Below are positions 47,339-64,000 of a DNA stretch of 64,000 nucleotides, one piece after another. The first letter of the stretch is position 1; each line of letters opens with the position of its first letter. The stretch spans positions 1-64,000 of the IMG/VR virus record IMGVR_UViG_3300046820_001270; one strand, written 5' to 3'. The translations under genes were made by a program, and so were the position numbers. The DNA is from a virus (Duplodnaviria; Caudoviricetes). The notes beneath the pieces are model-generated. The model saw only the letters and a program-made list of their open reading frames with translations, was not told the origin of the DNA and ran no database searches.

Positions 47339-47992
47339 ATGAAAAATACTTTATGGATTTTTGGAGATTCAACAAGCGACGAATTTACACCAAAAAATTT
47401 AAATGATAATTTTGATTTTAGGACCAAATATTATAATTATAAAGGTTTTACACCAAAAGTGTTTGGTCAAATAATATCCGAAACATTAAATTTAAATTAT
47501 AAAAATAATTCAGGTCAGGGATTTTGTAATGATAGTATTTTTCAAACTATTTGTGACGTGTCAGACCAAATTAAAAAAGAAGATATATTAATAATTAATT
47601 GGACCTCAATTACAAGATTTAGAATGATAAGTAAAATTAATGTTTGGACACATATTGTCCCTAATTTTAATGTCGACACTAAATTATTTAATAATATTAG
47701 TAATAATACAATAAACGAAATATTAATTAATAGAGATAATGATCTATACGTTAATGACGTAAATTCAAAAATAAAATTAATTAAAAACGCATATAAAGAT
47801 AATATTGTTATTAATTGGACACCTTTCATACATAAATTTGATGCGGAAATGTTATTTGATGATTTTGAAACAATATTTAAAGAAACTTCAGGTGAGATAA
47901 ATGATTATCATTTTAGTGAAAACGGACATTTAAAATTAGCGGATTATTTATTATCAATTATAGATCAAATAATGAATAAAAAATTAATTTAA
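47339..47992 (+). CDS. SGNH/GDSL-like protein
   Basis: WIFGDST, GFCNDSI, INWTSITR, DYHFSENGH; ends KKLI. Confidence 0.7.
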   Translation: MKNTLWIFGDSTSDEFTPKNLNDNFDFRTKYYNYKGFTPKVFGQIISETLNLNYKNNSGQGFCNDSIFQTICDVSDQIKKEDILIINWTSITRFRMISKINVWTHIVPNFNVDTKLFNNISNNTINEILINRDNDLYVNDVNSKIKLIKNAYKDNIVINWTPFIHKFDAEMLFDDFETIFKETSGEINDYHFSENGHLKLADYLLSIIDQIMNKKLI

Positions 47993-48031
47993 AATTTTAT
48001 TTATTCATTATTTTTAATTATATTAGTTTAA

Positions 48032-48463
48032 ATGAAACTAATATCACATAGAGGTAATTTGTATGGGCCTAATCCAAATGAAGAAAATAACCCTCAATAC
48101 ATTATAGATACTCTTGAATTAGGATACGACGTAGAAATTGACGTTTGGTATATAGACAATAAATTCTATTTAGGTCACGACTATGCTAAATATGAAATAG
48201 ACATTAAGTTTCTATTAAATGAAAAATTATGGTGTCATTCTAAAAATTTAGATGCGTTAAATGAAATGTTAAACAATGGAATTAGATGTTTTTGGCATCA
48301 AAATGATGATTTTACATTAACTAGTGATGGTTTTATATGGACATACCCAAATAAAGAAACAACAATAAAATCAATAATTGTTTGTTTAGATGATACTTTA
48401 CCAAATAATTTAAATAAAAATAATATATATGGAATTTGCGGAGACAATGTCGGATCTTGGTAA
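48032..48463 (+). CDS. Short PLC/GDPD-like phosphodiesterase-fold protein
   Basis: LISHRGN, EENNP, YDVEIDVW, LGHD, LWCHSKN, GIC.D. Confidence 0.7.
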   Translation: MKLISHRGNLYGPNPNEENNPQYIIDTLELGYDVEIDVWYIDNKFYLGHDYAKYEIDIKFLLNEKLWCHSKNLDALNEMLNNGIRCFWHQNDDFTLTSDGFIWTYPNKETTIKSIIVCLDDTLPNNLNKNNIYGICGDNVGSW

Positions 48464-49226
48464 AATTAAACGAATTGCTGTATGTTTAAGTGGTAATTTT
48501 AGAACTTGGAAAACAGTTGTTAAAACTTGGGATAATGTTATAAAAATCGATAACGTTGAAGTGGATTATTTTATTCATACATGGGATAAAGTATCTCCGT
48601 CAATGCAAATAATCGGAAATTTAAAAAAAACTGGTATTACGGATGAAGAGATACTAAAAGACTATTACAAACCATTAGATATGAATTTACTTAATGAAGT
48701 ATTAGATTATCATAAACCTGTTAGTTATTTAATCGAATCTCCAAAAGATTTAAGTTTTAAAAACCCTAAACAATCGATATTTGAAAAATCACATTTATCA
48801 CAATTTTTTGGGATAATGATGGTAGGTAAATTAAAGAGAGAACATGAAATTAAAAATGACTTCACATATGATTTAGTAATACGAATGAGATTCGATACAT
48901 ATTTTACTACACCAATAATAATTGATAACATTAAACCCAAATTAAACACAGTGTATGGAAATCACTATGATTATTATTATGATGAAGTATATAAAAGACA
49001 TAATGGTAGATTGGGGGACATTTTTTGGTGTTCAGATTCACTAACTTATGATATACTGTCGGATTTTTATTTAGAATTACAAAACATTACAGATATACCA
49101 CATGGGACACCACCAGAATTTAGTTGGTTGCGTTATATAAAGAAAAACGGGATTAACATAACACCAAATCCTAGATGGGACTTACATATTCTAAGGGAGA
49201 ATGATACGTTAAAAAAATTAATATAA
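48429..49226 (+). CDS. Putative nucleotide-sugar transferase (IAVCxSG family)
   Basis: IAVCLSGNFRT, DYFIHTW, YDLVIRMRFD, GDIFWC..S; alternative ATG at 48447; ends KKLI. Confidence 0.6.
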   Translation: MEFAETMSDLGKIKRIAVCLSGNFRTWKTVVKTWDNVIKIDNVEVDYFIHTWDKVSPSMQIIGNLKKTGITDEEILKDYYKPLDMNLLNEVLDYHKPVSYLIESPKDLSFKNPKQSIFEKSHLSQFFGIMMVGKLKREHEIKNDFTYDLVIRMRFDTYFTTPIIIDNIKPKLNTVYGNHYDYYYDEVYKRHNGRLGDIFWCSDSLTYDILSDFYLELQNITDIPHGTPPEFSWLRYIKKNGINITPNPRWDLHILRENDTLKKLI

Positions 49227-50000
49227 ATGGAAAAAAGAAAAATTGCAGTTTGTATAAGTGGACAAATAAGAACAGCGATTGAAGCCGTATCTAATTTTAA
49301 TTTATTTTTTCAGGATGAAGATATAGATGTGTTTATTCACACATGGTATGACCCATCATTAGAAGATCATGAAAATGTAATAAATCAAATAAAAACACTA
49401 TATAAACCAAAAAAATTTCAAATTGATATATCACCAAATACCAATAGACTTAATTTTGAGGTAATGTTAAAGACCATTATGTTATCAAATGAATTAAAAA
49501 GGAAATATGAAGTTGAGAATGATATTAGGTATGATGTCGTTGTAAAATATAGATTTGACATTTTATTTCCACAAATTACCAAATTTACAGTAAATAACAT
49601 AGAACCACGTACATTATATTACCCACAAGGGAATAACGGAGTACAACATACGGACTATAATAATCACGGGATGACTGATGTTATATTTTGGGGAGATTCC
49701 CAAACGATGGATATTGCTTGTGATACTTATAGATATTATAAATTCGTATTATTGCCAATTAGAAACACATTTGTCGAAAAAACTGGACATATTGTATATG
49801 ACATGTCAGAATCATTAATGAGTCCAGGACAAATCATATTTAAGTATGCAACAAAACATAATATTTTCCCGATGGTTCTTAAAAAAGACGATAATAATTT
49901 TATGAATTTTACATTATGGAGAAAGGAAGTAAAAAATCTAAATTGGATAAACGATTTCGATAAAATAGAACATTTTTATCTAAATCAATATAACGACTAA
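49227..50000 (+). CDS. Putative nucleotide-sugar transferase, paralogue of the upstream gene
   Basis: IAVCISGQIRT, DVFIHTW, YDVVVKYRFD, DVIFWGDS..MD. Confidence 0.6.
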   Translation: MEKRKIAVCISGQIRTAIEAVSNFNLFFQDEDIDVFIHTWYDPSLEDHENVINQIKTLYKPKKFQIDISPNTNRLNFEVMLKTIMLSNELKRKYEVENDIRYDVVVKYRFDILFPQITKFTVNNIEPRTLYYPQGNNGVQHTDYNNHGMTDVIFWGDSQTMDIACDTYRYYKFVLLPIRNTFVEKTGHIVYDMSESLMSPGQIIFKYATKHNIFPMVLKKDDNNFMNFTLWRKEVKNLNWINDFDKIEHFYLNQYND

Positions 50001-50012
50001 AAAAATAATATT

Positions 50013-50888
50013 ATGAAATTATTGGTAACAGGAGATAGTTGGACATATGGTAGTGAATTAAGATCCCCTGAATTAAAAAAAGAAGACTTAGATACTCATA
50101 AAAATAATACTGAGTATAGAACTAAAAATGCTTGGCCACATAAATTAAGTAAATTAATGGGTAATGTTGATGAAATGGTAAATATTTCAAAACCATCCGC
50201 TAGTAATGATCGAATAGTGAGAGAATTAATTGATTATTTAACTAAAAATTACATTAAAGATAAAAAACCTGTTGACGATTTATTTGTAATTGTTGGATTT
50301 TCATCGTTAGATAGAGTTGATTTTTTTTACGACGGTTTATTTGGTAGAGGTTGGGAAACGATTTGGCCAAAATTTAATCATCATTATAGATTTTCCGATA
50401 TTGAGGATTTTAGTAAATTATATAATGAAGGCTTCTCAACAATTTATGGAGACTTCAATAGATATGTAAATCAAATACAATTTTTAGAATTATTTTTTGA
50501 AAAACATCATATAAAATATATGTTTTTTCATGGATTTTATCATCATCAAAATAAATATATAAGTAATTGGGAAGATGTGTTATATGTAAACGGATTAGCT
50601 TACGAATCTGGTACTTATTATTCTAAATTACATAATGAATTTGATTTAGATAGATGGATTGATATTGATCCAATACGTTTTGTTGATAAGGATAAACCAA
50701 TTCATAGTTTTCATAATAGAATAAAAAAAATTGCGAATGACCAAGACATATCATTAGACAAAATATTTGCGAAAAATATTGGTATGCATCCGTCAGAACT
50801 TGGACATACCTTATGGGCGGAATATCTTTATGAATATATGAAAGAAAATAAAAAGTTATTTAAGTTTATTGAAAAAACATTAATATGA
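50013..50888 (+). CDS. SGNH/GDSL-like protein
   Basis: VTGDSWTYG, SASNDRI, VGFSSLDR, MHPSELGH; ends KTLI. Confidence 0.7.
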   Translation: MKLLVTGDSWTYGSELRSPELKKEDLDTHKNNTEYRTKNAWPHKLSKLMGNVDEMVNISKPSASNDRIVRELIDYLTKNYIKDKKPVDDLFVIVGFSSLDRVDFFYDGLFGRGWETIWPKFNHHYRFSDIEDFSKLYNEGFSTIYGDFNRYVNQIQFLELFFEKHHIKYMFFHGFYHHQNKYISNWEDVLYVNGLAYESGTYYSKLHNEFDLDRWIDIDPIRFVDKDKPIHSFHNRIKKIANDQDISLDKIFAKNIGMHPSELGHTLWAEYLYEYMKENKKLFKFIEKTLI

Positions 50889-51655
50889 TAAAAAAATTAA
50901 TGATTTGTGGAGATAGTTATGCATCAGGAATTGGATTAGATGAAAGTTATAATTTAGAAAAATCTTTTGGAGGTTTAATTTCTGAAAAATTAAGTATACC
51001 CTCAATAAATTACTCACGAGCAGGTATTTGTAATTTTGGAATATTTTTACAAGTTAAAAAATCTATTGAGGATAATAAAAATGATTTAGATAAATCATTA
51101 GTTATTATTTCATTAACACAATCTAGTAGATTAATGATTGCTTCCGAAAATATAACATCTGAGGATTTGGATTTATCAAATGTTGATTACATTAATAATC
51201 GACCATTTTCATATAGTGAAAAAAGAAAAAGAGACGTACCATTTATATTAAACAAAAGTCCTAAATTATTTAGCCAAACTATTTTAGATGTATTGGCACA
51301 TTTAAATAATAAAGTGTCGGGTGCAATGGAAGATGCTTATAAGATTTTACCAAAATATAAAATTGAAACATTAGGACAATATATACAAGATGTTTACTCC
51401 GATCCAATAAAAGATGAATATGACGTGGCTTTGGTTGCAAGAACACATCTATTATTAAAGATGAACAATATTAAACACATATTTTTAGGATCTCCAAGAA
51501 GTAAATTTGATTTTGTACCTGATGAAAATTTTTGTGAAGTAAATTGGAGAGAAATATCGGATAAATATCCAGACGAAATAGGATCAAGTCATTGTAATGA
51601 ATTTGGCCACGAAATGGTAAGAGATTTAATTTTAAAAAAAATATCAAATGAATAA
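50885..51655 (+). CDS. SGNH/GDSL-like protein
   Basis: ICGDSYASG, AGICNFGI, LTQSSR, SHCNEFGH. Confidence 0.7.
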   Translation: MIKKLMICGDSYASGIGLDESYNLEKSFGGLISEKLSIPSINYSRAGICNFGIFLQVKKSIEDNKNDLDKSLVIISLTQSSRLMIASENITSEDLDLSNVDYINNRPFSYSEKRKRDVPFILNKSPKLFSQTILDVLAHLNNKVSGAMEDAYKILPKYKIETLGQYIQDVYSDPIKDEYDVALVARTHLLLKMNNIKHIFLGSPRSKFDFVPDENFCEVNWREISDKYPDEIGSSHCNEFGHEMVRDLILKKISNE

Positions 51656-52835
51656 AGACACATTCTGCATAATGACGTACAAAGGTTTATTCGTTGAACC
51701 TACAAAACATGTGAAACCATGTTGTGTATTCAAAGATTTTGAAACCCCGTTAATATATGATGAAAATAAAACATTTGATGAAATGTTTAATTCCCCTCAA
51801 TTTATTGAATTAAGAGAAAAAATGGACAATGGTATTGTTCATAGTGGTTGTGTAAATTGTTTTAATGGCACTATTAACCATAGAGAGGGTATGAACATTA
51901 TGTTTTTTGGTAACGACTATGAAAAACTTAAAGAATTAAATATAAGTGAAGATTATAAATCGGACGAGATTCTTTATTTAGATTTAAGAATTTCCAATTT
52001 ATGTAATTTTAAATGTAGAATGTGTAATGCAACATATTCTTCCTCATGGGAAGACGAAATGAAACAAATTGAACCTAATTTTATATCTGAACCGAAATGT
52101 GGACATAATTGGATTAATCCTATTGTAGATAAAATAGATAAGATAAAATATCTTTATTTAGCAGGAGGAGAACCTTTAATAATGAAGGAAACATTTCAAT
52201 TATTAAAGTTAATAGAAAATAGAAAAAATGAAATTACATTATTTTTAAATACTAATTTGTCAAATTTAGAGTATAAAAAAATAGATGTTATTAATGAAAT
52301 AATAGAATTTAATAAAATACATTTATTTGTATCTTGTGATGGGTTTGGAGAAGTCGGTGAATACCAAAGAACAGGATTTAATACGGAAAAGTTTAAAACT
52401 AATTTAAAGACATTACTAAGTAGGATTAATAACTTAGATAAAATAAAATTAGATATAATTTATGCGTTAAGTTCAATAAATGTCTATAACCTGTTTAATT
52501 TTATGAAAGAACTAAAGGAAGAATTTAATTTAGGAGATGAAGTTATTAATTTTCAGTTTGTTAGTTCACCATGGTATTTTAGTGTGGCATCTATGGATGA
52601 AACACATAAAAAAGATGTGGTAAGTTTTATAAAAGATAATTATCATTTTTGTAATGAAAAAACTAAAAATCAATTAGATAATTTTATATATTTTGTCGAA
52701 AACAATAAAGACAACATAACCACATATCAAAAAGAAAAAGACTATGAATTCTTAAAAAAATTAGATATATTTAGAAATACAAATATAAATGAGGTTTCAC
52801 CTTGGATTTTTAAAAGTATTTTTAATGAGTTATAA
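51648..52835 (+). CDS. Radical SAM protein with N-terminal twitch/SPASM-like motif
   Basis: FCIMTY..PCC..CVNC; CNFKCRMC; LAGGEP. Confidence 0.9.
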   Translation: MNKDTFCIMTYKGLFVEPTKHVKPCCVFKDFETPLIYDENKTFDEMFNSPQFIELREKMDNGIVHSGCVNCFNGTINHREGMNIMFFGNDYEKLKELNISEDYKSDEILYLDLRISNLCNFKCRMCNATYSSSWEDEMKQIEPNFISEPKCGHNWINPIVDKIDKIKYLYLAGGEPLIMKETFQLLKLIENRKNEITLFLNTNLSNLEYKKIDVINEIIEFNKIHLFVSCDGFGEVGEYQRTGFNTEKFKTNLKTLLSRINNLDKIKLDIIYALSSINVYNLFNFMKELKEEFNLGDEVINFQFVSSPWYFSVASMDETHKKDVVSFIKDNYHFCNEKTKNQLDNFIYFVENNKDNITTYQKEKDYEFLKKLDIFRNTNINEVSPWIFKSIFNEL

Positions 52836-53538
52836 ATGTTTATACGCAAATGGAGATAGTTGGACGGAAGGGGATGAAATCGGAGATGAAAAGGATCATC
52901 GTAACACGCCGACCCTTAGATATTACAACTCTTGGCCTTGGTTTTTATCACAAGAATTGAATATCGGTGTTTGTGTAAATGACGGTGCCAACGGAAGATC
53001 AAATTATAGAATTTTCAGAAGAACCATTAAATTTATATTTGAATGGATAGAAAATGGAAAAAATCCATCTGAGTTAATTATTATTAATGGATGGACAACG
53101 CCAGAAAGATTTGAACTACCTGTTATAGATAAAAAAGGAAAAGGTAGTTATACTCATCTATTAATCAATACCCCGATATATGATAAAATTAAGTATGATT
53201 CATTAACTATTGATAAAATTAATAAATTTAGCAATTTATTTTATGAATTAATTGACTTAAATGAATTAGATAAAAATATGATTAACCATATGAGAATATT
53301 GAGAATTATTACCAAATATTTTGGTATAACTTATTTTGATTTTATTGGTGTTGGTAATCACCCGAATAACATTAAATTAAATTATAAAGATGATTTTAGT
53401 AATCTTTTTTCTAAAAGTTTTTTAAATACGGTATATGAAAATAAATGGAGTACTCACGAACAAAAACACCCAACAATCGAAACCCACAAAAAATGGGCAA
53501 CACTATTGAAAAATTTTATTAATGAATATAATTTATAG
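52825..53538 (+). CDS. SGNH/GDSL-like protein
   Basis: In-frame ATG at 52825 preferred over 52789; ANGDSWTEG, GRSNYRI, GWTTPER, KHPTIETH. Confidence 0.7.
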   Translation: MSYKCLYANGDSWTEGDEIGDEKDHRNTPTLRYYNSWPWFLSQELNIGVCVNDGANGRSNYRIFRRTIKFIFEWIENGKNPSELIIINGWTTPERFELPVIDKKGKGSYTHLLINTPIYDKIKYDSLTIDKINKFSNLFYELIDLNELDKNMINHMRILRIITKYFGITYFDFIGVGNHPNNIKLNYKDDFSNLFSKSFLNTVYENKWSTHEQKHPTIETHKKWATLLKNFINEYNL

Positions 53539-54244
53539 TTTATGTGGTAATGGACAAAGATTTAAAGATAAGGGATATGATACAATAAAATACCTTATCA
53601 AATATGGTAATGCACCTATGTTGTATCATTCTGTAAATACATTAGGTATTAGTGGTAATTTACATTTTATTGTTAGAGACGTACATTTAAAAGAATATAA
53701 ATTTTTAGAAAAGTTTCTATTAGATTTAGGTGGTAAAATAACAATTTGTTATAAGGAAACTTCGGGAGCAGCAGAATCTTTGTTATTATGTGAAAATGAT
53801 ATTGAAAATAAAGATTTACCATTTATATCGGTAAATTCAGATCAATATATGAATTGGAATGCTAAACCATTTATAAAAAAATTATTAGAAAATCCCGATA
53901 CTTCATATACACTAACATTTCAATCAACCGATCCAAAATGTAGTTATGTTAGATTGTTAAATGATAAAATAGTCGAAGTTAGAGAAAAATTAGTAATTAG
54001 CAATCAAGCAACTGTTGGGGTATATCATTGGAAAACAAGTAAAGATTTTTTTATTGATGCTAAACAAATGATTAATGATAATGTTAGAGACAATAATGAA
54101 TTTTACGTTGCACCAGTTTATAACTTTTCAATAAAAAGAGGATTAGTGGTTAAACCACATGAAATAAATCCAGATAATTTTATACCAGTCGGTACTCCAT
54201 ATGACTTGGTAAATTTTATGGCAGAACAAAGATTTTTTGATTAA
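53522..54244 (+). CDS. Sugar-phosphate nucleotidyltransferase-like protein (NTP_transferase fold)
   Basis: GNGQRFKDKGY..KYLI, TSGAAES, VNSDQ, ATVGVYHW, EFYVAPVYN, VGTPYDL. Confidence 0.8.
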   Translation: MNIIYSLCGNGQRFKDKGYDTIKYLIKYGNAPMLYHSVNTLGISGNLHFIVRDVHLKEYKFLEKFLLDLGGKITICYKETSGAAESLLLCENDIENKDLPFISVNSDQYMNWNAKPFIKKLLENPDTSYTLTFQSTDPKCSYVRLLNDKIVEVREKLVISNQATVGVYHWKTSKDFFIDAKQMINDNVRDNNEFYVAPVYNFSIKRGLVVKPHEINPDNFIPVGTPYDLVNFMAEQRFFD

Positions 54245-54576
54245 TGGAAAAATACAATATAAATGATTTTAAGAGAGGGTGGTTTATTGGTAATTTTGAA
54301 CCATCATTATTTAAGGGTAATTTTGAAGTAGGTCTTCAAAAATCAAAAATGGGAGATAGCCATGACGACCATTTCCATAAAAAAAATACCGAATATAATT
54401 TAGTTATTAGCGGTAGAATCAAAATAAACGATGAGGTATTTATTAAGGATGATATATTCATAATTAAACCATATACAGTAAGTCATAGTGTAGAATATCT
54501 TGAAGATACTGAAATTTTGGTTGTAAGAGATATGAGCGATTCTACAGATAAGTACATTTATAAAATAATTAATTAA
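54244..54576 (+). CDS. Cupin-fold protein
   Basis: GWFIGNFEPS, HDDHFHKKNTEY...ISG. Confidence 0.7.
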   Translation: MEKYNINDFKRGWFIGNFEPSLFKGNFEVGLQKSKMGDSHDDHFHKKNTEYNLVISGRIKINDEVFIKDDIFIIKPYTVSHSVEYLEDTEILVVRDMSDSTDKYIYKIIN

Positions 54577-54578
54577 CA

Positions 54579-55802
54579 ATGAATATATATAAAAAAACGG
54601 CACCCGATAATCATTTTGTGGTCGAGTATTATTTGGAAGCAAAAACATCATTAAAAGATGCGGCTTGGAACATCGCTATAGGACAGAGTATAGGAAATCC
54701 AAATAATCGAAGTATTTGGGAAACTGAAGAAATGTATGAAAATCACATTTGTTTTATACTCGAAGATGAGGATTACTTAAAATCACATAAAAATGGTATT
54801 GTAAAAATTTCATTTCCACTTTCAAACATTAATTTAGAAGAAGACGGAATTTCACAAATTTTATGTCACATTGCTGGAGGACAAGTTGATATCTTAGAAA
54901 TTCAAAAATGTCATGTTTTAAATATTGAATTACCTGAAGATGTTGAAAACTCATTTAAATTAAAACCAGCATACGGTATAGACGGATTTAGAAAATTAAA
55001 TGGTGTTTACGAAAAACCATTTTTAGGTGGGATCATTAAACCAAAAGTTGGTATGTCACCGGAAGTGTTATTAGAAGTGGTAAAAGAAATGGTCAACGGA
55101 GGGGTTAATTTTATCAAAGAAGACGAGTTATTAGGAAACCCAAATCACTGTCCATTAGAACAAAGAGTACCACTTATTACAAAATGGTTAAAAGAAAATG
55201 CTCCTGATGTGATATATTGTTTTTGTATTAATGGAGATAGTCCATATGCATTACAAAGAGCCCAATTTGTGGTGGATAATGGGGGTAATGGTATTCATAT
55301 AAACGTTTGGAGTGGATTAGGTGTGTACCGAGCAATCAGGAAACAAAACCCAAATTTATGGATACATTTTCAAAAAAGTGGTGATAAATTTTTCACAGAT
55401 AAAAGAGCACCGTTTCACATATATTGGCCCGTGATTTGTAAAATTGCAGGATGGTCTGGTGTAGATTCAATTCATGCGGGTATGATTGGTGGGTATATGA
55501 ATCAGGATGAAGAAGAATTAAAAGACACTTTAAAAATGTTATGGAAATACAATATTGTTCCAGCTCTAAGTTGTGGTATGCATCCAGGATTAGTACAATA
55601 TGTTAATGAATCTTTAAAAAGTTTTGATTGGATGGCAAATGTCGGTGGAGCAATGCATGCACATCCGATGGGAACTTTGGGAGGAGGAATTGCCATGAAA
55701 CAAGCAATAAATAAAAACTTTGACGGACAAGAATTCAAAATTGCAACTGAGAAATGGGGCAATAAAGAGTTTAACCCAGATTTGGCTTATCGATATTTTT
55801 AA
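54579..55802 (+). CDS. RuBisCO large-subunit-like protein (RLP, form IV-like)
   Basis: GGIIKPKVG, GGVNFIKEDE, DSIHAG, PALSCGMHPG, VGGAMHAHPMG; several carboxylase residues are substituted. Confidence 0.9.
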   Translation: MNIYKKTAPDNHFVVEYYLEAKTSLKDAAWNIAIGQSIGNPNNRSIWETEEMYENHICFILEDEDYLKSHKNGIVKISFPLSNINLEEDGISQILCHIAGGQVDILEIQKCHVLNIELPEDVENSFKLKPAYGIDGFRKLNGVYEKPFLGGIIKPKVGMSPEVLLEVVKEMVNGGVNFIKEDELLGNPNHCPLEQRVPLITKWLKENAPDVIYCFCINGDSPYALQRAQFVVDNGGNGIHINVWSGLGVYRAIRKQNPNLWIHFQKSGDKFFTDKRAPFHIYWPVICKIAGWSGVDSIHAGMIGGYMNQDEEELKDTLKMLWKYNIVPALSCGMHPGLVQYVNESLKSFDWMANVGGAMHAHPMGTLGGGIAMKQAINKNFDGQEFKIATEKWGNKEFNPDLAYRYF

Positions 55803-55816
55803 AAAATAATTTAATA

Positions 55817-57484
55817 ATGTATATAATAGGTATATCCGCATTTTATCACGATTCGTCTGTTTGTTTATTTAGAGACAATCAATTAATTTTTGCTTGTGAA
55901 GAAGAAAAGTTCACAGGTATTAAACATGATAGTTCGTTCCCAACGAATGCCTTGGAATATATCTATAAACAATATAAGATTACATCCAAAAATTTACAAG
56001 CAGTTTGTTATTATGAGGATCCTAAATTAAAATATCAAAGAGTAATGGAGAACATTAAACCTCAATGGTTTAAAAATCCAATATACTCATTGAAGTCTTA
56101 TTTTAAAATACGTAGTAATGTAAAGAATGTTGATAAGAAATTAAAAGAGATCTGCCCAACGATATTTTATTCAACACATCATGAAGCACATCAGTATTAT
56201 GCACATTATACATCACATTTTGAGGAATCAACTTGTTTATCAGTTGACGGTGTAGGTGAGATTGATACGGTGTCATTGGGAGTTGCAGATTATAATGGAA
56301 TCAAATACAGTTCACTTGCAAAGTATCCACATTCAATGGGTCTTTATTACTCCGCATTGACCTCATATTTAGGGTTTAGACCGAACGAAGGTGAGTATAA
56401 GGTAATGGGATTAGCGTCTTATGGTGATCCTCAAAAGTACATTAAAGAGGTACGTGATTTGATTTCATTTAAAAGTGGTAAGTTGGTGTGTAATATGAAT
56501 GTATTTTGTTGGAATAAGACCGATAAATCTATGTTCAATGAGAAACTTGTGGAACTATTAAGTGTTCCACAAAGATTACCTGAAGAAACATTGGAACAAA
56601 CACATAAAGACTTGGCTGCTGCCGTTCAACTAAGATATGAGGAGGTATTGTTTGAAATTATCAAATCAATTAGACACGTAAGTAAAAGTCCAAACTTAAC
56701 ATTAAGTGGTGGTTGTGCGTATAATGGAACGGCTAATGGTAAAATTGTTGATAAATCACATTTTACACACCTTTGGATTCCACCGGCACCATCTGATGCG
56801 GGATCGGCAATTGGATCAGTCGTTCATTATTTGGTTAAAGAACGTAAAGTAAGAAGTAAAATTACAAGAAATCCATTTTTAGGACCTCAATATTATTTTG
56901 ATGATATTAGACGAGCAATTCATAGAAATAATTTTAAAAAGTTTGAATCTGAAAATAAATTAAGAACACATATTGCTCAAAAATTATTCGAAGGTAAAGT
57001 TGTGGGATGGTTTAATGGTCACATTGAATTCGGAGCAAGATCTTTAGGTAATAGATCAATATTGGCAAATCCAACATTACCTGATATGAAAGATAGAATT
57101 AATAAGGTCATTAAGAAAAGAGAAGGATTTAGACCGTTTGCACCAATGGTGACCAAAGAGAAACAAGATCAATTCTTTGAGATGACGGATGACGTTCCTT
57201 ATATGAATCAGGTTGTTAAGGTAAAGGAAGAATATCGAGATAAATTACCTGCGGTCACACACGTAGATGGTAGTGCAAGAGTTCAAACAGTTTACAAATA
57301 CACCGTTATTTATGATTTATTAAACGAATTTGAAAAATTAAGTGGTTATCCAATTTTATTGAATACCTCATTCAATGTTAAAGATAAGACAATGGTGTTG
57401 ACACCGAAAGATGCGGTTGATACTTTCTTTGATACTGATATGGATATATTAGTAATGGGTAATTATGTTATGTATAAAAATTAA
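55817..57484 (+). CDS. Carbamoyltransferase (NodU/CmcH/TobZ family)
   Basis: HDSSVCL, EEEKFTGIKH, HHEAH, VDGVGE, EYKVMGLASYG, PSDAGSAIG, EFGARSLGNRSIL, RPFAP, HVDGSARVQTV, LNTSFN. Confidence 0.95.
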   Translation: MYIIGISAFYHDSSVCLFRDNQLIFACEEEKFTGIKHDSSFPTNALEYIYKQYKITSKNLQAVCYYEDPKLKYQRVMENIKPQWFKNPIYSLKSYFKIRSNVKNVDKKLKEICPTIFYSTHHEAHQYYAHYTSHFEESTCLSVDGVGEIDTVSLGVADYNGIKYSSLAKYPHSMGLYYSALTSYLGFRPNEGEYKVMGLASYGDPQKYIKEVRDLISFKSGKLVCNMNVFCWNKTDKSMFNEKLVELLSVPQRLPEETLEQTHKDLAAAVQLRYEEVLFEIIKSIRHVSKSPNLTLSGGCAYNGTANGKIVDKSHFTHLWIPPAPSDAGSAIGSVVHYLVKERKVRSKITRNPFLGPQYYFDDIRRAIHRNNFKKFESENKLRTHIAQKLFEGKVVGWFNGHIEFGARSLGNRSILANPTLPDMKDRINKVIKKREGFRPFAPMVTKEKQDQFFEMTDDVPYMNQVVKVKEEYRDKLPAVTHVDGSARVQTVYKYTVIYDLLNEFEKLSGYPILLNTSFNVKDKTMVLTPKDAVDTFFDTDMDILVMGNYVMYKN

Positions 57485-57487
57485 AAT

Positions 57488-57604
57488 ATGAAAAAATTAA
57501 TCAATTGGGTAAAAGACTACTTTGAAAGAAGAAAAAGAAAGAAAGAATTTAAAAAGAAATTAGAAGATTTACGTAAAAGAGATCCATTTATTTATAATCA
57601 CTAA
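57488..57604 (+). CDS. 38-aa basic peptide (not in ORF track)
   Basis: MKKLINWVKDYFERRKRKKEFKKKLEDLRKRDPFIYNH*, starting 3 nt after the carbamoyltransferase stop. Confidence 0.65.
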   Translation: MKKLINWVKDYFERRKRKKEFKKKLEDLRKRDPFIYNH

Positions 57605-57612
57605 TTTCGTGA

Positions 57613-57619
57613 TATTTAT
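57613..57619 (+). promoter_or_regulatory. TATTTAT motif (putative late promoter)
   Basis: 13 nt before the ATG at 57633. Confidence 0.45.
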
Positions 57620-57632
57620 ATAAAAACAAATC

Positions 57633-57836
57633 ATGACATTCAAAATCAATGCACTTAAAACAATCGTAGGAAACGAAGAATTCGTATTATTGGACAATAT
57701 TTTTAACTCTGCTCAAGAAGCATTGGACTTTGTAAAGGCAAACTTATCATTAAATGATACTTTAGGACCAAAAAACGTTGTAAGTATTAAAATAAATGAC
57801 GTTTACTATCATTATTTTGAAATTATCGAAGGATAA
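57633..57836 (+). CDS. Small hypothetical protein
   Basis: 67 aa with its own upstream motif. Confidence 0.65.
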   Translation: MTFKINALKTIVGNEEFVLLDNIFNSAQEALDFVKANLSLNDTLGPKNVVSIKINDVYYHYFEIIEG

Positions 57837-57837
57837 T

Positions 57838-57866
57838 TTGACAATTTGAGGTATTTTTAGTATATT
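57838..57866 (+). promoter_or_regulatory. sigma70-type promoter TTGACA-N17-TATATT
   Basis: TTGACA 57838-57843, 17-nt spacer, TATATT 57861-57866; ATG at 57875. Confidence 0.65.
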
Positions 57867-57874
57867 ATATCATT

Positions 57875-58312
57875 ATGATATACTGGTTAACTGGACAACC
57901 CGCAGCAGGTAAAACAACATTAGGTACTTGGATTCAATCAAGTTTCCCTAATAAGTCCATAATTGTGGACGGAGACGATATCCGAGAAATATTCGTAAAT
58001 AAAGACTATTCTGAGGAAGGAAGGAAGAAAAACATTGAAAAGGCACAGATTTTGGCTAAGTTCCTTCATCATAAGGGTTATACCGTTATCGTATCGTTAG
58101 TTTCACCATATAGAGATCAAAGAGAAGAGTTTAAGAACGAAATGGGTGATAACTTAAGAGAAATCTATGTACATACCACCCAAGATAGAGGACGTAATCA
58201 TTTTCATGTTGAGGGGTATGAGCCACCTTTAGATAACTACTACGATTGTAATACTACAGATAGTAGTGAATATCAAACATTTTTAGAATTAAGAAGAAAA
58301 TTAAACATTTAA
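57875..58312 (+). CDS. cysC: Adenylyl-sulfate (APS) kinase
   Basis: WLTGQPAAGKTT, VDGDDIRE, RKKNI, VSLVSPY, EIYV, YEPP. Confidence 0.85.
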   Translation: MIYWLTGQPAAGKTTLGTWIQSSFPNKSIIVDGDDIREIFVNKDYSEEGRKKNIEKAQILAKFLHHKGYTVIVSLVSPYRDQREEFKNEMGDNLREIYVHTTQDRGRNHFHVEGYEPPLDNYYDCNTTDSSEYQTFLELRRKLNI

Positions 58313-58316
58313 TAAT

Positions 58317-58682
58317 ATGAGTAAGAAATATGCAATGTATGTTGGCAGATGGCAGAATTGGCACAAGGGCCACGAATGGTTAATTAACCAACAGTTAGAA
58401 AAGGGTAAGGATATTTGGGTTGCAATTAGAAATGTTCCGACAGATGAAAATAATCCTAAAACGGCCCAAGAAGTAATGATGGAATTAGCTGGTGAACCAT
58501 ATTTTATGGAAAATTCACATAGAATTAATATATCCATTATTCCAGATATTGAAAGTATCAATTATGGTAGAGGGGTTGGTTATGACGTTATTTATCACGA
58601 ACCACCACCTGAAGTTGAAGTAATAAGTGGAACTAAAATCCGTAATGGAGAAATGACAACTGACGGTAAAGTTAAAGGATAA
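58317..58682 (+). CDS. HxGH nucleotidyltransferase (cytidylyltransferase-like)
   Basis: YVGRWQNWHKGH, YGRGVGY, ISGTKIR. Confidence 0.75.
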   Translation: MSKKYAMYVGRWQNWHKGHEWLINQQLEKGKDIWVAIRNVPTDENNPKTAQEVMMELAGEPYFMENSHRINISIIPDIESINYGRGVGYDVIYHEPPPEVEVISGTKIRNGEMTTDGKVKG

Positions 58683-59197
58683 TGATACACCAAAGAGTTT
58701 TATTTACCAAAGACGAATGTGATTACCTTATAAATTACAGAAATAATGGTGTTTACCGAAATAACGGAGGGTATGTAAACCATGTTGATATAAATTATAA
58801 ACAGTGGTCAATTTTCAGAAATAGTGATTTAGAATTTTTGTTTGATAGAATTATATCTTTTGCTGAAATATCCTTTGATGTAAAAATAGAAAATTTTAAA
58901 GAGGAAAGTTGGATCTATCAGTGGGAAGTGAATGACGGTTATGGAATGCATAGGGATAATGTTAAAAATAGGAAATTCATAATAGGTGTACAATTGAATG
59001 ACGATTATGTTGGAGGGGATTTAATGGTTGATTATGGTAATCAAATATTAATTGCGGATAAAACAATTGGTAATTGTTATACTTTTGAATCCGCAATGTT
59101 ACACGGAGTTTCACCTATAATATCGGGTAATAGATTTAATATGTTAACTTTTTTTCCAACGTATAATATAAAACAGAATAAAGTTAGTTTAATATGA
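58682..59197 (+). CDS. 2OG-Fe(II) oxygenase
   Basis: GMHRD, QLNDDYVGGDL, LHGVSPI..G.RF; ends VSLI. Confidence 0.85.
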   Translation: MIHQRVLFTKDECDYLINYRNNGVYRNNGGYVNHVDINYKQWSIFRNSDLEFLFDRIISFAEISFDVKIENFKEESWIYQWEVNDGYGMHRDNVKNRKFIIGVQLNDDYVGGDLMVDYGNQILIADKTIGNCYTFESAMLHGVSPIISGNRFNMLTFFPTYNIKQNKVSLI

Positions 59198-59403
59198 TAG
59201 TAGAAAGAAAAAGACACATAGTTAAAACAATATCGTATCGTGTTATTAGTACTTTAATAGGGTTTGTTATAATGTGGTGGGTAAGTGGATCAATTAAAGT
59301 TGGTGCGGCATTTGGTGTGGCGGAATTGATATATAAACCCATACAATATTACATTCACGAAAGAATATGGTATAAGTGGATAAAATATGGATTAAAAAAA
59401 TAA
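59194..59403 (+). CDS. DUF2061-like membrane protein
   Basis: RHIVKTISYR...YYIHERIW. Confidence 0.8.
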   Translation: MIVERKRHIVKTISYRVISTLIGFVIMWWVSGSIKVGAAFGVAELIYKPIQYYIHERIWYKWIKYGLKK

Positions 59404-59439
59404 AAAAAGAAAAAACAATAATCTAATATATAATAAGTT

Positions 59440-60003
59440 ATGATTGGTAATATAGACATATTTGAAAAATTCCTATCACCCGAAGAATGCGACCTTATTT
59501 TAAATAAATGTAAAGGAGAATTAACATTATCAAAGGCGAAAGTATACGGGGATAATTCTAACGATACTCATACTAAAACAATTAGAAAATCATCAATCGG
59601 GTGGATATCTGATTTAGGATTTTTAAATGAAAGATTAACAAATATATTAAAAAAAACATTCACAATAAACGGTATGGAAGTTACTGGATTAGGTAATTAT
59701 CAATTTACTGAATACAAAGAAGACGAATATTTTGATTGGCATACTGATAGTACGGACACTATATATAGAGATAGATTTACATCAATAGTAATTCAATTAA
59801 ACGATACATATCAAGGTGGAATATTGGAAATAAAAAATATTAAAGGAGAACTAGTACCAATAGAAAATAAAATAGGAACGTTATATATTTTTAATTCAAG
59901 ATTATCACATAGAGTAACACCTGTGGTAGATGGTATTAGATACTCATTAGTAAATTGGGTATCATTAGTTAAAACCGATTCAAAAAAACAAAATCTTTTA
60001 TAA
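59440..60003 (+). CDS. 2OG-Fe(II) oxygenase (prolyl-4-hydroxylase-like)
   Basis: FDWHTD, QLNDTYQGGIL, SHRVTPVVDGIRYSLVNW; ends QNLL. Confidence 0.9.
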   Translation: MIGNIDIFEKFLSPEECDLILNKCKGELTLSKAKVYGDNSNDTHTKTIRKSSIGWISDLGFLNERLTNILKKTFTINGMEVTGLGNYQFTEYKEDEYFDWHTDSTDTIYRDRFTSIVIQLNDTYQGGILEIKNIKGELVPIENKIGTLYIFNSRLSHRVTPVVDGIRYSLVNWVSLVKTDSKKQNLL

Positions 60004-60023
60004 TAATAAAAAAACAAAAACAA

Positions 60024-60233
60024 ATGAAAATTTTTAATTTAGGTGATGCCTCACCATCAGGTAGAATGACATTCCTTTCAATAGGGGTGGTGGTATTTAT
60101 AGCCAATTGTTTAGCTGGTTTTGATAACATTAGTTGGGTACATTGGCTACCTCCGGTTCTTTTACCTTTGGCCGCTTTAACTGGAATTTGTCCTTTTAAG
60201 ATCGTATGGGAAAAATTAGGATTTAGAAAATAA
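60024..60233 (+). CDS. DUF2892/YgaP-like membrane protein
   Basis: Two TM segments and AALTGICPF...KLG. Confidence 0.7.
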   Translation: MKIFNLGDASPSGRMTFLSIGVVVFIANCLAGFDNISWVHWLPPVLLPLAALTGICPFKIVWEKLGFRK

Positions 60234-60242
60234 AAAAATAAA

Positions 60243-60578
60243 ATGAAATTTATATTAACATTTGCAATTGCTATTATAATTTTATATTCTATTATTGGTT
60301 GGAAACGAATATTTGATAGATATAAAATGTTTATGAATAAAACTTATTGGACAGATTATAATACAATTGAGTTTGCTGCTTGGTTTGCTAAGGCGATCAT
60401 CATAATACCTGGATTAGTATTCGGAATTGAAATATGGTATCTACATTTCCTAACACTACTTACGTCTTCATTATTGATTTGGGCATCAATGAAAAAGGAT
60501 TTACCTACATTAATTGCTTTTAATACGATATGGATTTGTTTATCATTAACGATATTAATAAGACATTTAATACCATAA
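60243..60578 (+). CDS. Membrane protein
   Basis: 111 aa, about four hydrophobic segments. Confidence 0.75.
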   Translation: MKFILTFAIAIIILYSIIGWKRIFDRYKMFMNKTYWTDYNTIEFAAWFAKAIIIIPGLVFGIEIWYLHFLTLLTSSLLIWASMKKDLPTLIAFNTIWICLSLTILIRHLIP

Positions 60579-60579
60579 T

Positions 60580-61821
60580 ATGAAAGTTACAATTATAGGT
60601 GGAGGAACTGCCGGTTGGTTATCGGGTTTATATTTTAATTCTCAGGGATATGAAGATATTACAATTATAGATAGTTCCAAAGTTGGAATATTAGGTGCGG
60701 GAGAGGCATCTACACCAAATTTAAATGGATTATTATTAAATTTAGGAATTGATAAGATTGATTTTTTAAAAACAACCGGAGCAACCATAAAGGTATCGAA
60801 TGATTTTATAAATTGGTCTCCCTTCGGAGGTAAATACGAAAACCCATTCGGTCACCCCAATAGATTAAAAGAAGAAAATGATAATACATATGGTTATCAT
60901 TTTGATGCGAGAGAATGTGCTAAGTATTTTAAAAATATAGGAATTAATAGAGGAATAAAACATTTAGATGTTAATATTACACATTTTACTCAAAATGAAA
61001 ACGGAGATATTACCAATATTCATACCGAAGAAAAAATAAACATTGAAACAGAATTTGTTATCGATTGTAGTGGTTTTGGTAGATTATGTATCGGTAAATT
61101 ATATAATAGTAAATGGAAATCGTATTCGGAATATTTGAAGGCTAACTGTGCAATTGCATATTTTCTACCACAGGATAGAGTATTGACAGAAAATTCTAAA
61201 ACACATACCCAATCCATTGCTATGAAAAACGGATGGATGTGGCAAGCACCACTACAACATAGATGGGGATGTGGATATGTGTTTAATGATACTTACATTA
61301 CAAATGAAGAGGCTAAAAAAGAAGTTGAAGATTACTTGGGTAGAGAAATTGAAATTGTTAAAACTTTCAAATTTGATGCTGGTGGGTATGAAGAAACATG
61401 GATTAATAATTGTGTTGCACTTGGGTTATCTAGCGGATTTTTAGAACCATTAGAAGGAACATCGTTAATGTCCGTTATATGGTCTTTAAATAAATTAAGT
61501 GATATTAGGTTAGAAAATTGTAATTTTGAAAATAGAAAATTATATAATGAATATGTTAATAATGTAAATTATCAATCTATGTTGTTTGTTAGACATCATT
61601 ATAATTGTGGTCGAACTGATACTAAATTTTGGAGAGATATAAATAATACTAAATTACCATCAGATTTAATTAAAATACTTAGAAGTTTAGAAAAGAATAT
61701 TGAAGACGATTCATTGATTTATATTACAAGTAAAAAAGATGGATTACCAATATTTGGTAAAAATCATTATCAAATAGTTGATTTGGGTCATAAATCAAAA
61801 ACAATAAAAACATTTTTATAA
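60580..61821 (+). CDS. Flavin-dependent halogenase (tryptophan halogenase family)
   Basis: IIGGGTAGW, GAGEAS, GATIK, FVIDCSGF, WMWQAP, GFLEPLEGT; ends KTFL. Confidence 0.88.
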   Translation: MKVTIIGGGTAGWLSGLYFNSQGYEDITIIDSSKVGILGAGEASTPNLNGLLLNLGIDKIDFLKTTGATIKVSNDFINWSPFGGKYENPFGHPNRLKEENDNTYGYHFDARECAKYFKNIGINRGIKHLDVNITHFTQNENGDITNIHTEEKINIETEFVIDCSGFGRLCIGKLYNSKWKSYSEYLKANCAIAYFLPQDRVLTENSKTHTQSIAMKNGWMWQAPLQHRWGCGYVFNDTYITNEEAKKEVEDYLGREIEIVKTFKFDAGGYEETWINNCVALGLSSGFLEPLEGTSLMSVIWSLNKLSDIRLENCNFENRKLYNEYVNNVNYQSMLFVRHHYNCGRTDTKFWRDINNTKLPSDLIKILRSLEKNIEDDSLIYITSKKDGLPIFGKNHYQIVDLGHKSKTIKTFL

Positions 61822-61822
61822 G

Positions 61823-62332
61823 ATGAATCATATATTAGTTGATAATTTTTTTAACGACCCCCATTCAATCAGAAAACTTGCATTGTCTATGGAATATGTT
61901 AAATCATCTAAAAAAACAGGATGGAAAGGATATAGAGTCATTATAAATAATGATGATATAAAAAAATATATTAAATATAAATTAATTGAAATAGATAAAA
62001 AATTTGAAAATTTATTGATAGATGAAATTTTTTTTCATTATATTTTAGAGGAAAATAGAAATGATTTAAAAAAAAGATTACACAAAGACACAACAGATTT
62101 TGCTGGAGTTATTTACCTCACACCAAACCCACCTAAAAATTCAGGAACAACCTTACATAACGATAATACCAATTTGGAGAACGTAATTGATAATGTATAT
62201 AATAGATTTATTTTCTATGACGGAAAAAAATTACACGGCCCACAAGATACTTTTGGTAATAGTATTGAAAATGGTAGATTAACATTAACCATGTTTGCAA
62301 ATATTAGTAAGAATAAAAAAACAATAATATAA
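61823..62332 (+). CDS. 2OG-Fe(II) oxygenase-like protein
   Basis: VDNFFNDP, LHKD, AGVIYLTP, SGTT, NVYNRFIFY, LHG, RLT; ends KTII. Confidence 0.75.
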   Translation: MNHILVDNFFNDPHSIRKLALSMEYVKSSKKTGWKGYRVIINNDDIKKYIKYKLIEIDKKFENLLIDEIFFHYILEENRNDLKKRLHKDTTDFAGVIYLTPNPPKNSGTTLHNDNTNLENVIDNVYNRFIFYDGKKLHGPQDTFGNSIENGRLTLTMFANISKNKKTII

Positions 62333-62334
62333 TT

Positions 62335-62937
62335 ATGATTGAAGAAATAAAATTAAATGATAATACTAATATCTATAAATCAAAAATAAAAATTACCGAT
62401 AAAAATAAATTGATATCGGATATAAAACTTAATTTAGATATTTCCATAAATTCAAAAAATTCAACCCCCACCGAACCTGGTATCCAATCAACTATTGTAA
62501 TATCAACACCTTCCATACGAGAATTAAATGAAAAAATAATAGATGTATTATTTAAAAATTCTAAGATAGATATAAATACACCATATATCACAAATCAATG
62601 GGTTTATATTAGTGATAAGAAGAATACATATTATGGATTTCATTCCCACGATAAGAAAAATCACACAAACATACCGTTACAATGGACATATACTTATTAT
62701 GTCCAAATGCCAAATAATTTAGTTGGGGATGATGGTAAATTAGTTTTTAAATTAGATAATGATACTACACATTCCATATTGCCTGAAGTTGGTGATTTAC
62801 TTATATTTCCCACAACATTATTACATGCACCAATGACTAATACTAATTCGGAAATAGAAAGAATTGTATTTGCTGGAGTTTGGAGTTATATTGACACAAC
62901 AATTCAAATTAGAAAAAAAAATAAAACATTATTATAA
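62335..62937 (+). CDS. 2OG-Fe(II) oxygenase-like protein
   Basis: HSHD, YTYYVQMP, GKLVF, PEVGDLLIFP..LLHAP, RIVFAG; ends KTLL. Confidence 0.75.
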   Translation: MIEEIKLNDNTNIYKSKIKITDKNKLISDIKLNLDISINSKNSTPTEPGIQSTIVISTPSIRELNEKIIDVLFKNSKIDINTPYITNQWVYISDKKNTYYGFHSHDKKNHTNIPLQWTYTYYVQMPNNLVGDDGKLVFKLDNDTTHSILPEVGDLLIFPTTLLHAPMTNTNSEIERIVFAGVWSYIDTTIQIRKKNKTLL

Positions 62938-62938
62938 T

Positions 62939-63226
62939 ATGTTAAATTTTAAAGAAATATTTACATCTTGGGCGAAACTTTCAAATCCAACAGAACAAGA
63001 GGAACGATTAGCTAAAATTAGATTTTCAATATGTGAAGGTTGTCAATATAAGAAAGAGATTATTAAGACAAAGAAGTGGTCGTTATTATGTGGAAAATGT
63101 GGATGTCCTATACGGGCAAAAGTTTTTTCAGATCAGATTAATCCGTGTCCTATGGGATATTGGAAAGATATCGATAAAAATTTTGGATTAGATATTGATG
63201 AAAAGAATAAAAAATCAATAATTTAA
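62939..63226 (+). CDS. Small Cys-rich metal-binding protein
   Basis: ATG at 62939 preferred; R..ICEGC...CGKCGCPIRAK...CPMGYW; ends KSII. Confidence 0.75.
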   Translation: MLNFKEIFTSWAKLSNPTEQEERLAKIRFSICEGCQYKKEIIKTKKWSLLCGKCGCPIRAKVFSDQINPCPMGYWKDIDKNFGLDIDEKNKKSII

Positions 63227-63348: not shown

Positions 63349-64000
63349 ATGAAAGGTACAATTATTGGGACGGACTTATTAGAATTTAACAATTCGGTAA
63401 AAATTTTAGAAATAAACACAAATACAACTATCTTCAACAGTGCAGTTGATTTGTTAGATTATACATTATTTTTTGAAATGTTAGTTAATAATAATATTAA
63501 CGAATTACATTTTATTTATAATGAGTCGGATGCGTATATAAATGATACCGATACAATGCTTTTTTTATTTGAAGAAAGATTAAAAACAAAATGTATTGAG
63601 AATGGTATCACATATTTTGATTACAAAGTACCAGCTAATTCTGTAACTGTACCGTTTATTGAAGATGCTAATAATAAATTTATTTTAAGACAGGCATTTG
63701 ATACGACTGCGTTGGTAGATGAAACATATTGTGCAGATAAATTTGAATTTTTTAATTTAATGAAAGATTCACAATATATTCCAAAAACATATATAAATAA
63801 TGGTACTGAATTATCTTTTGACACCTTTAATACTATAAGTAATTATACAAACGGTAGACCAAATTTAGTTAAAAAAGATAGATACCCAAGTTATGATTTT
63901 CATTTATATCCTGCTTTATCTAAATTAACTACCGATGTACAATTATCTCAATTAAAAACATCAGTAGATAATACCACGTTTTTGATACAAGAATTTATTT
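63349..64000 (+). CDS. ATP-grasp-like protein, circularly permuted type (3' truncated, not in ORF track)
   Basis: Hand translation is open to the window end: MKGTIIGTDLLE...KILEINTN...DKFEFF..M...IPKTY...PNLVKK...LIQEFI. Confidence 0.6.
   Translation, partial: MKGTIIGTDLLEFNNSVKILEINTNTTIFNSAVDLLDYTLFFEMLVNNNINELHFIYNESDAYINDTDTMLFLFEERLKTKCIENGITYFDYKVPANSVTVPFIEDANNKFILRQAFDTTALVDETYCADKFEFFNLMKDSQYIPKTYINNGTELSFDTFNTISNYTNGRPNLVKKDRYPSYDFHLYPALSKLTTDVQLSQLKTSVDNTTFLIQEFI

Follow-up and report, generated by a model that had tools for sequence, protein, structure and literature searches.

A lysine-rich C-terminal tail shared by unrelated tailoring-type enzymes in a gene cluster of large T4-like phages

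The peroxisomal targeting signal 1 (PTS1), [SAC]-[KRH]-[LM]-COOH, is a minute signal confined to the very C-terminus, where its carboxylate is free; basic residues precede it, and it is carried by dozens of unrelated enzymes of linked function and read by the TPR domain of Pex5. Encapsulin cargo and microcompartment peptides are short C-terminal tags common to unrelated cargo enzymes that are encoded beside one organising gene, and the C-terminal hydrophobic tip of the single-stranded DNA-binding protein (SSB), the tails of T7 gp2.5 and gp4 and the clamp-binding motifs (QL[SD]LF-COOH) allow several proteins to plug into one hub. PDZ class I ligands end in [S/T]-x-hydrophobic-COOH and the ClpX C-motif 2 has basic and then aliphatic terminal residues; bacterial PDZ proteases act in the envelope. 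In the biosynthesis of ribosomally made peptides with post-translational modifications (RiPPs), including those with the protein-like NHLP leaders of the proteusins and with flavin halogenases, it is the enzyme that reads the leader of the precursor (PMC12537861, PMC10858898). Here we describe a short C-terminal tail, in the following called the tag, at the end of nine genes in a 64,000-nucleotide stretch of phage DNA (the window; positions 1 to 64,000 of IMG/VR record IMGVR_UViG_3300046820_001270, Caudoviricetes). The tag marks tailoring-type enzymes of one phage gene cluster, and the tagged genes are organised around a gene from 63349 that encodes an ATP-grasp/Hint/Cys-rich protein, hereafter the precursor, which had escaped a preliminary description of the window and is the most informative context of the tag.

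The preliminary description had taken the nine ends for a docking, localisation or degradation signal on interchangeable tailoring enzymes. All nine were found where it had placed them (Table 1), and none of the tail-fibre genes at 11229-33595 ends in this way. Among the 21 genes of the island holding the tags, eight end in [IL][IL] where 0.56 would be expected from the internal dipeptide frequency of 2.65% (P 4e-8), and none of the 34 window genes outside the island does. The four-residue pattern K-[TSKN]-[LIF]-[LI]-COOH ends 9/21 island genes against 0.2% internally (P about 4e-19) and no gene of the window outside the island; the motif was defined after the data had been seen, and its simplest version is robust to any reasonable correction. 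As the preliminary description had proposed, the ends were also compared with a null of out-of-frame stops, at which the core motif occurs with 0.5–0.9%, against 8/24 for the island genes of the window (P 3e-12) and 11/21 for the island of a 245-kb relative (G001, the contig of locus L019; P 3e-20). At control loci, which encode homologous enzymes and hold no precursor in the fetched stretch, two hydrophobic residues end six of 162 genes and the core motif ends none of them. Chance or composition as the origin of the tag is ruled out by the internal-frequency, out-of-frame and control-locus nulls.

With an alignment of the precursor 80 loci were fetched from IMG/VR, and the C-termini were tabulated in the 73 in which the precursor was recognised. 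In these, 93–100% of the genes at positions -5 to -1 relative to the precursor and 80–93% of those at +1 to +4 end in two hydrophobic residues, and the tag rate is about 25% at ±8 and about 5% from roughly ten genes away, with 1% for the precursor itself. The 11 tagged genes in the island of the 245-kb relative lie at 53–70 kb, against 4/248 genes with the core motif elsewhere in this genome, and the island is centred on an untagged protein of about 500 amino acids (aa). BLAST clustering of 1,803 proteins gave 80 families with at least three distinct members. These are bimodal, as 22 of them are at least 80% tagged (most of them 100%), 47 do not exceed 20% and 11 are intermediate, and at least 22 BLAST-unrelated families carry the tag across the relatives. 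Families with a majority of tagged members make up 24/80 against a null of 10% (P 6e-7), and within ±5 genes of the precursor 32/57 families are tagged, compared with 33/231 beyond (P 3e-10). The tagged families comprise several 2-oxoglutarate (2OG) oxygenases, the halogenase, DUF6071, DUF6734, radical S-adenosylmethionine (SAM) enzymes, methyltransferases, a metallophosphoesterase, a SET-domain protein, an epimerase-2OG fusion and several families without assigned function; the untagged ones include the precursor, an adenosine phosphosulfate (APS) kinase, a 121-aa protein, DUF2061, a carbamoyltransferase and HSP20.

The neighbours are still tagged when the precursor is only a distant homologue (profile E-values of 1e-31 to 1e-95) with an unrelated core peptide. 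Locus L116 has an unbroken run of 12 tagged genes, of which two precede the precursor and ten follow it; at L124 eight of the nine genes after the precursor are tagged, at L118, L119 and L123 most neighbours and at L122 about six of ten. The association of the tag with the precursor is hence old and independent of the core sequence. A second small group of genes, with the ends IKLKIF, VKRSLI, KIKSLV and EIENII, was seen at 91.7–97.7 kb of the 245-kb relative (L027:11713-17673), 35 kb from the main island, and it includes a DUF6734 protein.

The tag is selected at the amino-acid level. In 84 non-redundant core-tagged genes Leu at position -2 is encoded by TTA, CTA, CTT, TTG and CTC with 68, 13, 10, 8 and 2%, compared with 64, 10, 10, 11 and 2% in gene bodies, and Ser at -3 is encoded by TCT, TCG, AGT and TCA, the residue persisting although its codons differ in every position, which points to selection on the protein. 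The Thr, Lys, Asn and Gln codons at tag positions also match the background, as does the synonymous usage at -2, -3 and -4 in general, and the only codon excess is that of ATA at -1, because ATGA overlaps are frequent. Orthologous tails differ in sequence and keep the pattern, as in HKSKTIKTFL, HKAKRTKSLI and NRTRNKKELI, so that the comparison of amino-acid with nucleotide conservation, another of the checks proposed earlier, found the amino acid kept and the codons free. For the halogenase 103 of the 120 best homologues, down to 43% identity, end in two of I/L/F/M and most of the others in TLV; cyanophage-like homologues with 38–40% identity are 80 residues longer and untagged.

These results bear on the competing explanation, raised for A-rich initiation in the preliminary description, that the tag is a by-product of an A/T-rich initiation, coupling or recombination sequence for the downstream gene. 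Many tagged genes do abut or overlap the next start, and the sequence AAAAAAWTAAT occurs seven times where 2.7 occurrences are expected. Against this, synonymous sites are free, Ser being encoded by both TCN and AGT, codons for Ser and Thr at -3 include G or C and the order of the residues is fixed. Outside the islands tight junctions are tagged in 0/16 cases in the window and 1/60 in the 245-kb relative, and the out-of-frame null is as low as given above. Inside the islands of the window and of the relative tags are found at 5/10 and 6/10 tight and at 3/14 and 5/11 loose junctions, and they precede gaps of 39–122 nt or more and occur on both strands; gaps of about 40 and 120 nt had been noted before and measure 39 nt after 47992 and 122 nt after 63226. 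An A-rich start of the next gene is therefore refuted by codon usage, the coupling test and the orthologue pattern, and we give any nucleotide-level origin of the tag next to no credence. All the refuting checks named in the preliminary description thus turned out in favour of the tag. The sequence AAAAAAWTAAT (window 47978, 49212, 50891, 57491 and others) itself encodes KKLI at two C-termini as well as M-(I)-KKL at the N-termini of 50885 and a small open reading frame at 57488.

The tail is a short linear motif, in which a Lys-rich linker is followed by [K/N]-[S/T/K/N]-[L/I]-[I/L] and the free carboxylate. In family-weighted figures, position -1 is I (62%), L (24%) or F (7%), position -2 L (69%), I (23%) or F (6%) and K in 0%, position -3 S (24%), K (20%), T (17%) or N (12%) and position -4 K (41%) or N (19%), with 25–33% K at positions -5 to -8. 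About 41% of the tails have S/T at -3 in ends of the S/T-L-I-COOH type. A variable polar stretch, six to ten residues long, connects the last conserved block of a family with its tag, and in well-sampled tagged families the motif is exactly terminal in 91–100% of the distinct members. As the position is strictly terminal, recognition of the tag seems to include the free carboxylate.

In the precursor an ATP-grasp domain is followed by a Hint domain with His-Asn at its end and then by a Trp/Tyr-rich peptide of about 30 aa with six Cys. The part encoded in the window is 84% identical over 217 aa to the precursor of L036 (L036:10001-11518). In AlphaFold models searched with Foldseek residues 1–290 match ATP-grasp ligases, namely glutathionylspermidine synthetase (GspS), YgiC/YjfC and eukaryotic glutathione synthetase (E 2e-6), and residues of about 300–472 the Hint fold of hedgehog, inteins and bacterial intein-like proteins (E 4e-8); the matches of the N-domain in the AlphaFold database include 'circularly permuted ATP-grasp'. 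Ligases of the GspS, YgiC/YjfC and glutathione synthetase type activate the C-terminal carboxylate of a peptide. The ATP-grasp motifs E21-x-N23, K131, K176 and Q214-E215-F216 are invariant in 44 sequences. The Cys-rich peptide starts at the HN/C junction of the Hint domain and would be set free there by C-terminal cleavage of the Hint type. Among 1.8 billion representatives a profile search detected 336 precursor homologues with very different core peptides, none of them in cultured phages. All homologues inspected (proteins P0121-P0270) have the order ATP-grasp, Hint, HN and Cys-rich tail, and their core peptides are hypervariable with 6–8 Cys and often end in K or K-x. In some of them (P0123, P0124, P0128-P0130, P0132 and others; L119:3394-5274) a second Hint domain (CF.AGT...HN) directly follows the core. 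Cleavage at both core ends could set the core free, which suggests intein-style release or head-to-tail cyclisation. The genes thus encode a precursor-like protein, with a Cys-rich C-terminal peptide after the HN of its Hint domain, and tailoring-type enzymes around it, which may make the cluster a RiPP cluster. The tag delimits an undescribed phage gene cluster, presumably for peptide modification.

Compared with the described systems, the tail would act like PTS1, encapsulin cargo peptides, SSB tips and PDZ ligands, and it has the defining sequence of none of those tested, apart from the PDZ class I pattern, which part of the tails have. With PTS1 it shares size, position, free carboxylate, preceding basic residues and the unrelated enzymes of linked function, but it has Leu or Ile and never a basic residue at -2, S/K/T/N at -3, and belongs to a phage of bacteria. 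Like encapsulin cargo the tagged enzymes are unrelated and encoded beside one organising gene, which here is the ATP-grasp/Hint precursor and not a shell protein; the tail presumably does not fit the encapsulin cargo-peptide consensus, and no encapsulin Pfam match was present among the cluster genes scanned, no search aimed at encapsulin having been made. The tails of SSB, of the T7 proteins and of clamp-binding proteins are acidic or begin with Gln and sit on DNA enzymes, whereas the phage tail is Lys-rich and sits on tailoring enzymes. Gln, as required by the beta-clamp motif QL[SD]LF, is found at -5 in only 9/134 tails, which have K/N/I/E there, and -4, where the motif has Leu, is K in 41%. 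Acidic-hydrophobic tails at 117–125 kb of the 245-kb relative, beside a tail-sheath-like gene, were set aside as a clamp-docking comparison, the four tailed proteins scanned having no Pfam match and a DNA polymerase not being detected in this genome. PDZ class I ligands and ClpX C-motif 2 resemble the tags with S/T-L-I-COOH ends and the order of basic and aliphatic residues, P0 being hydrophobic in all tagged proteins and P-2 being S/T in only about 41% and otherwise K/N/E/D. No PDZ, ClpP or S41 gene was found in the 245-kb relative, which is estimated to be 86% complete. A dilysine signal (KKxx or KxKxx) does not fit either, as Lys is at -3 in only about 20% of families and the virus, with its T4-type capsid, is a phage. 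As in RiPP clusters, one precursor with a large structured leader and a small core has to be found by many tailoring enzymes, a flavin halogenase among them. The known RiPP enzymes carry a folded reader and the precursor a recognition sequence, whereas here it is the enzymes that carry a common peptide, and to our knowledge no shared enzyme tail is known for RiPP clusters.

From the earlier proposal of a signal on interchangeable tailoring enzymes, the selection at the protein level and the restriction to tailoring-type enzymes of one cluster stand. That the tail is a C-terminal docking peptide, which recruits the tailoring enzymes to a common partner, possibly the folded leader of the precursor, is a reading we believe about as readily as we doubt it. 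Docking function and the identity of the receptor are what we infer as the best-supported account. One common partner would accept the last residues of the tail with their carboxylate in a pocket, and many small single-domain enzymes would thereby be recruited to the same substrate or scaffold. A docking peptide fits because enzymes that modify an acceptor are tagged and cofactor-supply enzymes are not, because many unrelated families carry the tag and because it is terminal; Pfam scans of the tagged enzymes found no recognisable peptide-binding domain. The favoured partner would be the precursor's own folded 470-aa 'leader', since the precursor is the sole untagged protein found at every cluster (most loci having been fetched by it) and since the ATP-grasp fold class binds peptide carboxylates. 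The 17 loci that were fetched through enzymes also hold the precursor where the flank allows. The usual RiPP logic would then be inverted, with the enzyme bearing the peptide tag and the substrate the folded receptor. In its specific form, in which the four-residue plug K-[S/T]-L-I-COOH of about 20 unrelated enzymes is read via its carboxylate by the ATP-grasp (or Hint) domain of the precursor, this inverted leader system is possible and in our estimate rather doubtful. The precursor would be scaffold as well as substrate for an interchangeable set of enzymes, and in an extreme version its ATP-grasp domain would activate the tail carboxylate and join enzyme and peptide covalently.

Several points speak against docking on the precursor. 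The receptor remains a candidate, and some tagged proteins have domains of the small-molecule type, as the NAD-epimerase/2OG fusion in the 245-kb relative, which fit a metabolon or compartment equally well. Three tagged genes of the window (47339-50888) lie 13–16 kb from the precursor, and the invariant ATP-grasp motifs make it probable that this domain is a ligation catalyst and more than a receptor. A complex prediction for the precursor (alignment A2) and a tagged 2OG oxygenase (alignment A3) was run without controls, gave a score of 0.00 and is evidence neither way. All loci come from related AT-rich phages and gene-level counts are not independent, which the family-level counts were meant to offset.

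The tail could instead be a degron, the basic-then-hydrophobic C-terminus being read by a host AAA+ protease such as ClpXP, so that the enzymes would be short-lived or remodelled. Its Lys-rich stretch and two aliphatic residues at the free C-terminus are like the MuA class, a resemblance that is qualitative only (the MuA-type C-motif 2 is reportedly RRKKAI-COOH, from work by Flynn et al. in 2003), and the strictly terminal position is in line with it. Because a phage-encoded receptor was not found in the PDZ, ClpP and S41 searches of the 245-kb relative, a host reader is possible; the lack of such genes, with PDZ (PF13180) matching in 14/14 control genomes and not in this one, also counts against a degron. 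As there is moreover no evident reason to destabilise only the acceptor-modifying enzymes and to spare the cofactor-supply enzymes of the same operons, we regard a degron as unlikely. Slightly less probable still is a localisation signal that targets the enzymes to a compartment, a membrane or the prohead. Its layout, with many unrelated enzymes and one tiny C-terminal peptide in common, would be that of encapsulin cargo and PTS1, DUF2061-like small membrane proteins and HSP20 recur as conserved neighbours in the cluster, and the phage has an HK97-type T4 capsid. Two hydrophobic residues are, on the other hand, too few for a membrane anchor, the sequence fits neither PTS1 nor, presumably, the encapsulin consensus, and packaging some twenty enzymes without a substrate has no evident purpose.

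Least probable among these functions, and improbable in itself, is a handle for ligation, in which the carboxylate of the tail, once activated by the ATP-grasp domain of the precursor, would be bonded to an amine or thiol such as that of the N-terminal Cys on the released peptide, so that the tagged proteins would end up in covalent linkage with the peptide or the precursor. In favour are the N-domain, whose fold is that of ligases by which C-terminal carboxylates of peptides are activated and whose motifs are invariant in the 44 sequences, the end of the Hint domain, with HN before a Cys as it is in inteins, and the strictly terminal tags. However, each ligation would use up one precursor, the conserved K-x-COOH end of the core peptide itself could just as well be the substrate of the ligase, the tagged proteins resemble ordinary tailoring enzymes and a fusion search found no tagged family fused to a Cys-rich peptide.

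The genes of the cluster in the window are listed in Table 1. The preliminary description had counted nine unrelated folds. This number has to be lowered, since the products of 58682 and 59440 belong to one BLAST family, that of 62335 is a further 2OG-Fe(II) oxygenase and that of 47339 clusters with 50013 (DUF6071, SGNH-like) while having no Pfam match of its own; the nine tagged proteins represent about seven BLAST families and five or so superfamilies. The start of the last tagged gene is likewise changed, from TTG 62864 to most likely ATG 62939, which gives 95 aa as in 54 relatives. Homologues of this protein are encoded directly upstream of the precursor in nearly all loci (family 4, 94–98% tagged), and a protein-atlas look-up returned only viral hypothetical proteins for it. 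Of the 135 unique members of family 0 (58682) 97–100% are tagged, of the 55 unique members of family 6 (47339) 91%, and in family 5 (62335) the tail IKKEKSLI is conserved in alignment A3.

Table 1. Genes of the tagged cluster in the window, with their C-terminal ends.
Coordinates	Strand	Length (aa)	C-terminal end	Assignment	Tag and junction
47339..47992	+	217	MNKKLI		tagged; 39-nt gap to next gene
48429..49226	+	265	TLKKLI	weak DUF7796 match	tagged; stop abuts next ATG
50013..50888	+	291	IEKTLI	DUF6071	tagged; ATGA overlap with next gene
57875-58312	+			APS-kinase-like, cofactor-supply enzyme by Pfam	untagged cluster member; family 13% tagged
58317-58682	+	121			untagged cluster member; family 0% tagged
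58682..59197	+	171	NKVSLI	2OG-Fe(II) oxygenase	tagged; ATGA overlap with 59194-59403
59194-59403				small DUF2061-like gene	untagged
59440..60003	+	187	KKQNLL	2OG-Fe(II) oxygenase	tagged
60243..60578	+	111	RHLIP		family 20, 33% tagged
60580..61821	+	413	KTIKTFL	FAD-dependent Trp-halogenase-like enzyme	tagged
61823..62332	+	169	NKKTII	weak partial DUF6445 match	tagged
62335..62937	+	200	KNKTLL	2OG-Fe(II) oxygenase	tagged
62939..63226	+	95	NKKSII		tagged; 122-nt gap after
63349..63999	+	217		N-terminal part of precursor of about 500 aa, cut by window end	untagged cluster centre

The product of 60243-60578 has a tag-like end capped by one proline, and its relatives end in RHLI, KHLL, KNIL or RNLL; it is possibly a natural 'masked' tag. 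Two genes at 34355-35212 and 35212-36660, the latter without PHROG match, end in KKIVSI and LKVSL and can be seen as half-tags with a single terminal hydrophobic residue. The 12-nt sequence AAAGTTAGTTTA in this region recurs at the end of 58682-59197. At the edge of the tagged run an HSP20 (alpha-crystallin) gene is recurrent (L116:17973-18362; BLAST family 18, 14 loci; also L009-L013), whose product has its own I-K-V/I-K-I tail. Because the grooves of small heat shock proteins bind short hydrophobic tails, the HSP20 of the cluster is a second candidate receptor.

The window originates from a freshwater metagenome, in which its contig has about 334 kb. Its DNA is AT-rich (25–36% G+C), with nearly all called genes on one strand, and the tail-fibre genes at 11–33 kb are followed by radical SAM genes and further, unassigned ones at 33–47 kb and then by the tagged island. 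The 245-kb relative encodes a T4 gp23-type capsid gene, and the phage of the window and its relatives are therefore large T4-like phages. Neither megablast of the island against isolate phages nor tblastn of the precursor against 50,697 phage records gave a match, and no cultured phage of that collection holds the precursor. Scanning IMG/VR with 50013 found no relatives and with 62335 a single contig. Precursor and tagged neighbours were also seen at L039 (IMGVR_UViG_GVMAG-M-3300009164-63_000001), a contig filed under the name of a giant-virus metagenome-assembled genome, which looks like a mis-binned phage fragment because the relatives have T4-type capsids.

Full-text literature searches brought up neither a tail common to several enzymes nor phage precursors of the ATP-grasp/Hint type. 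The tag can serve as a genome-mining marker for this large, undescribed family of phage ATP-grasp/Hint/Cys-rich clusters, and it indicates which of the neighbours, several of them without assigned function, belong to the pathway. If the tail is indeed a docking peptide, four residues would suffice as a portable address for directing any enzyme to one peptide-modifying assembly, which would be a new organising principle for peptide natural-product pathways as well as a simple handle for their engineering.

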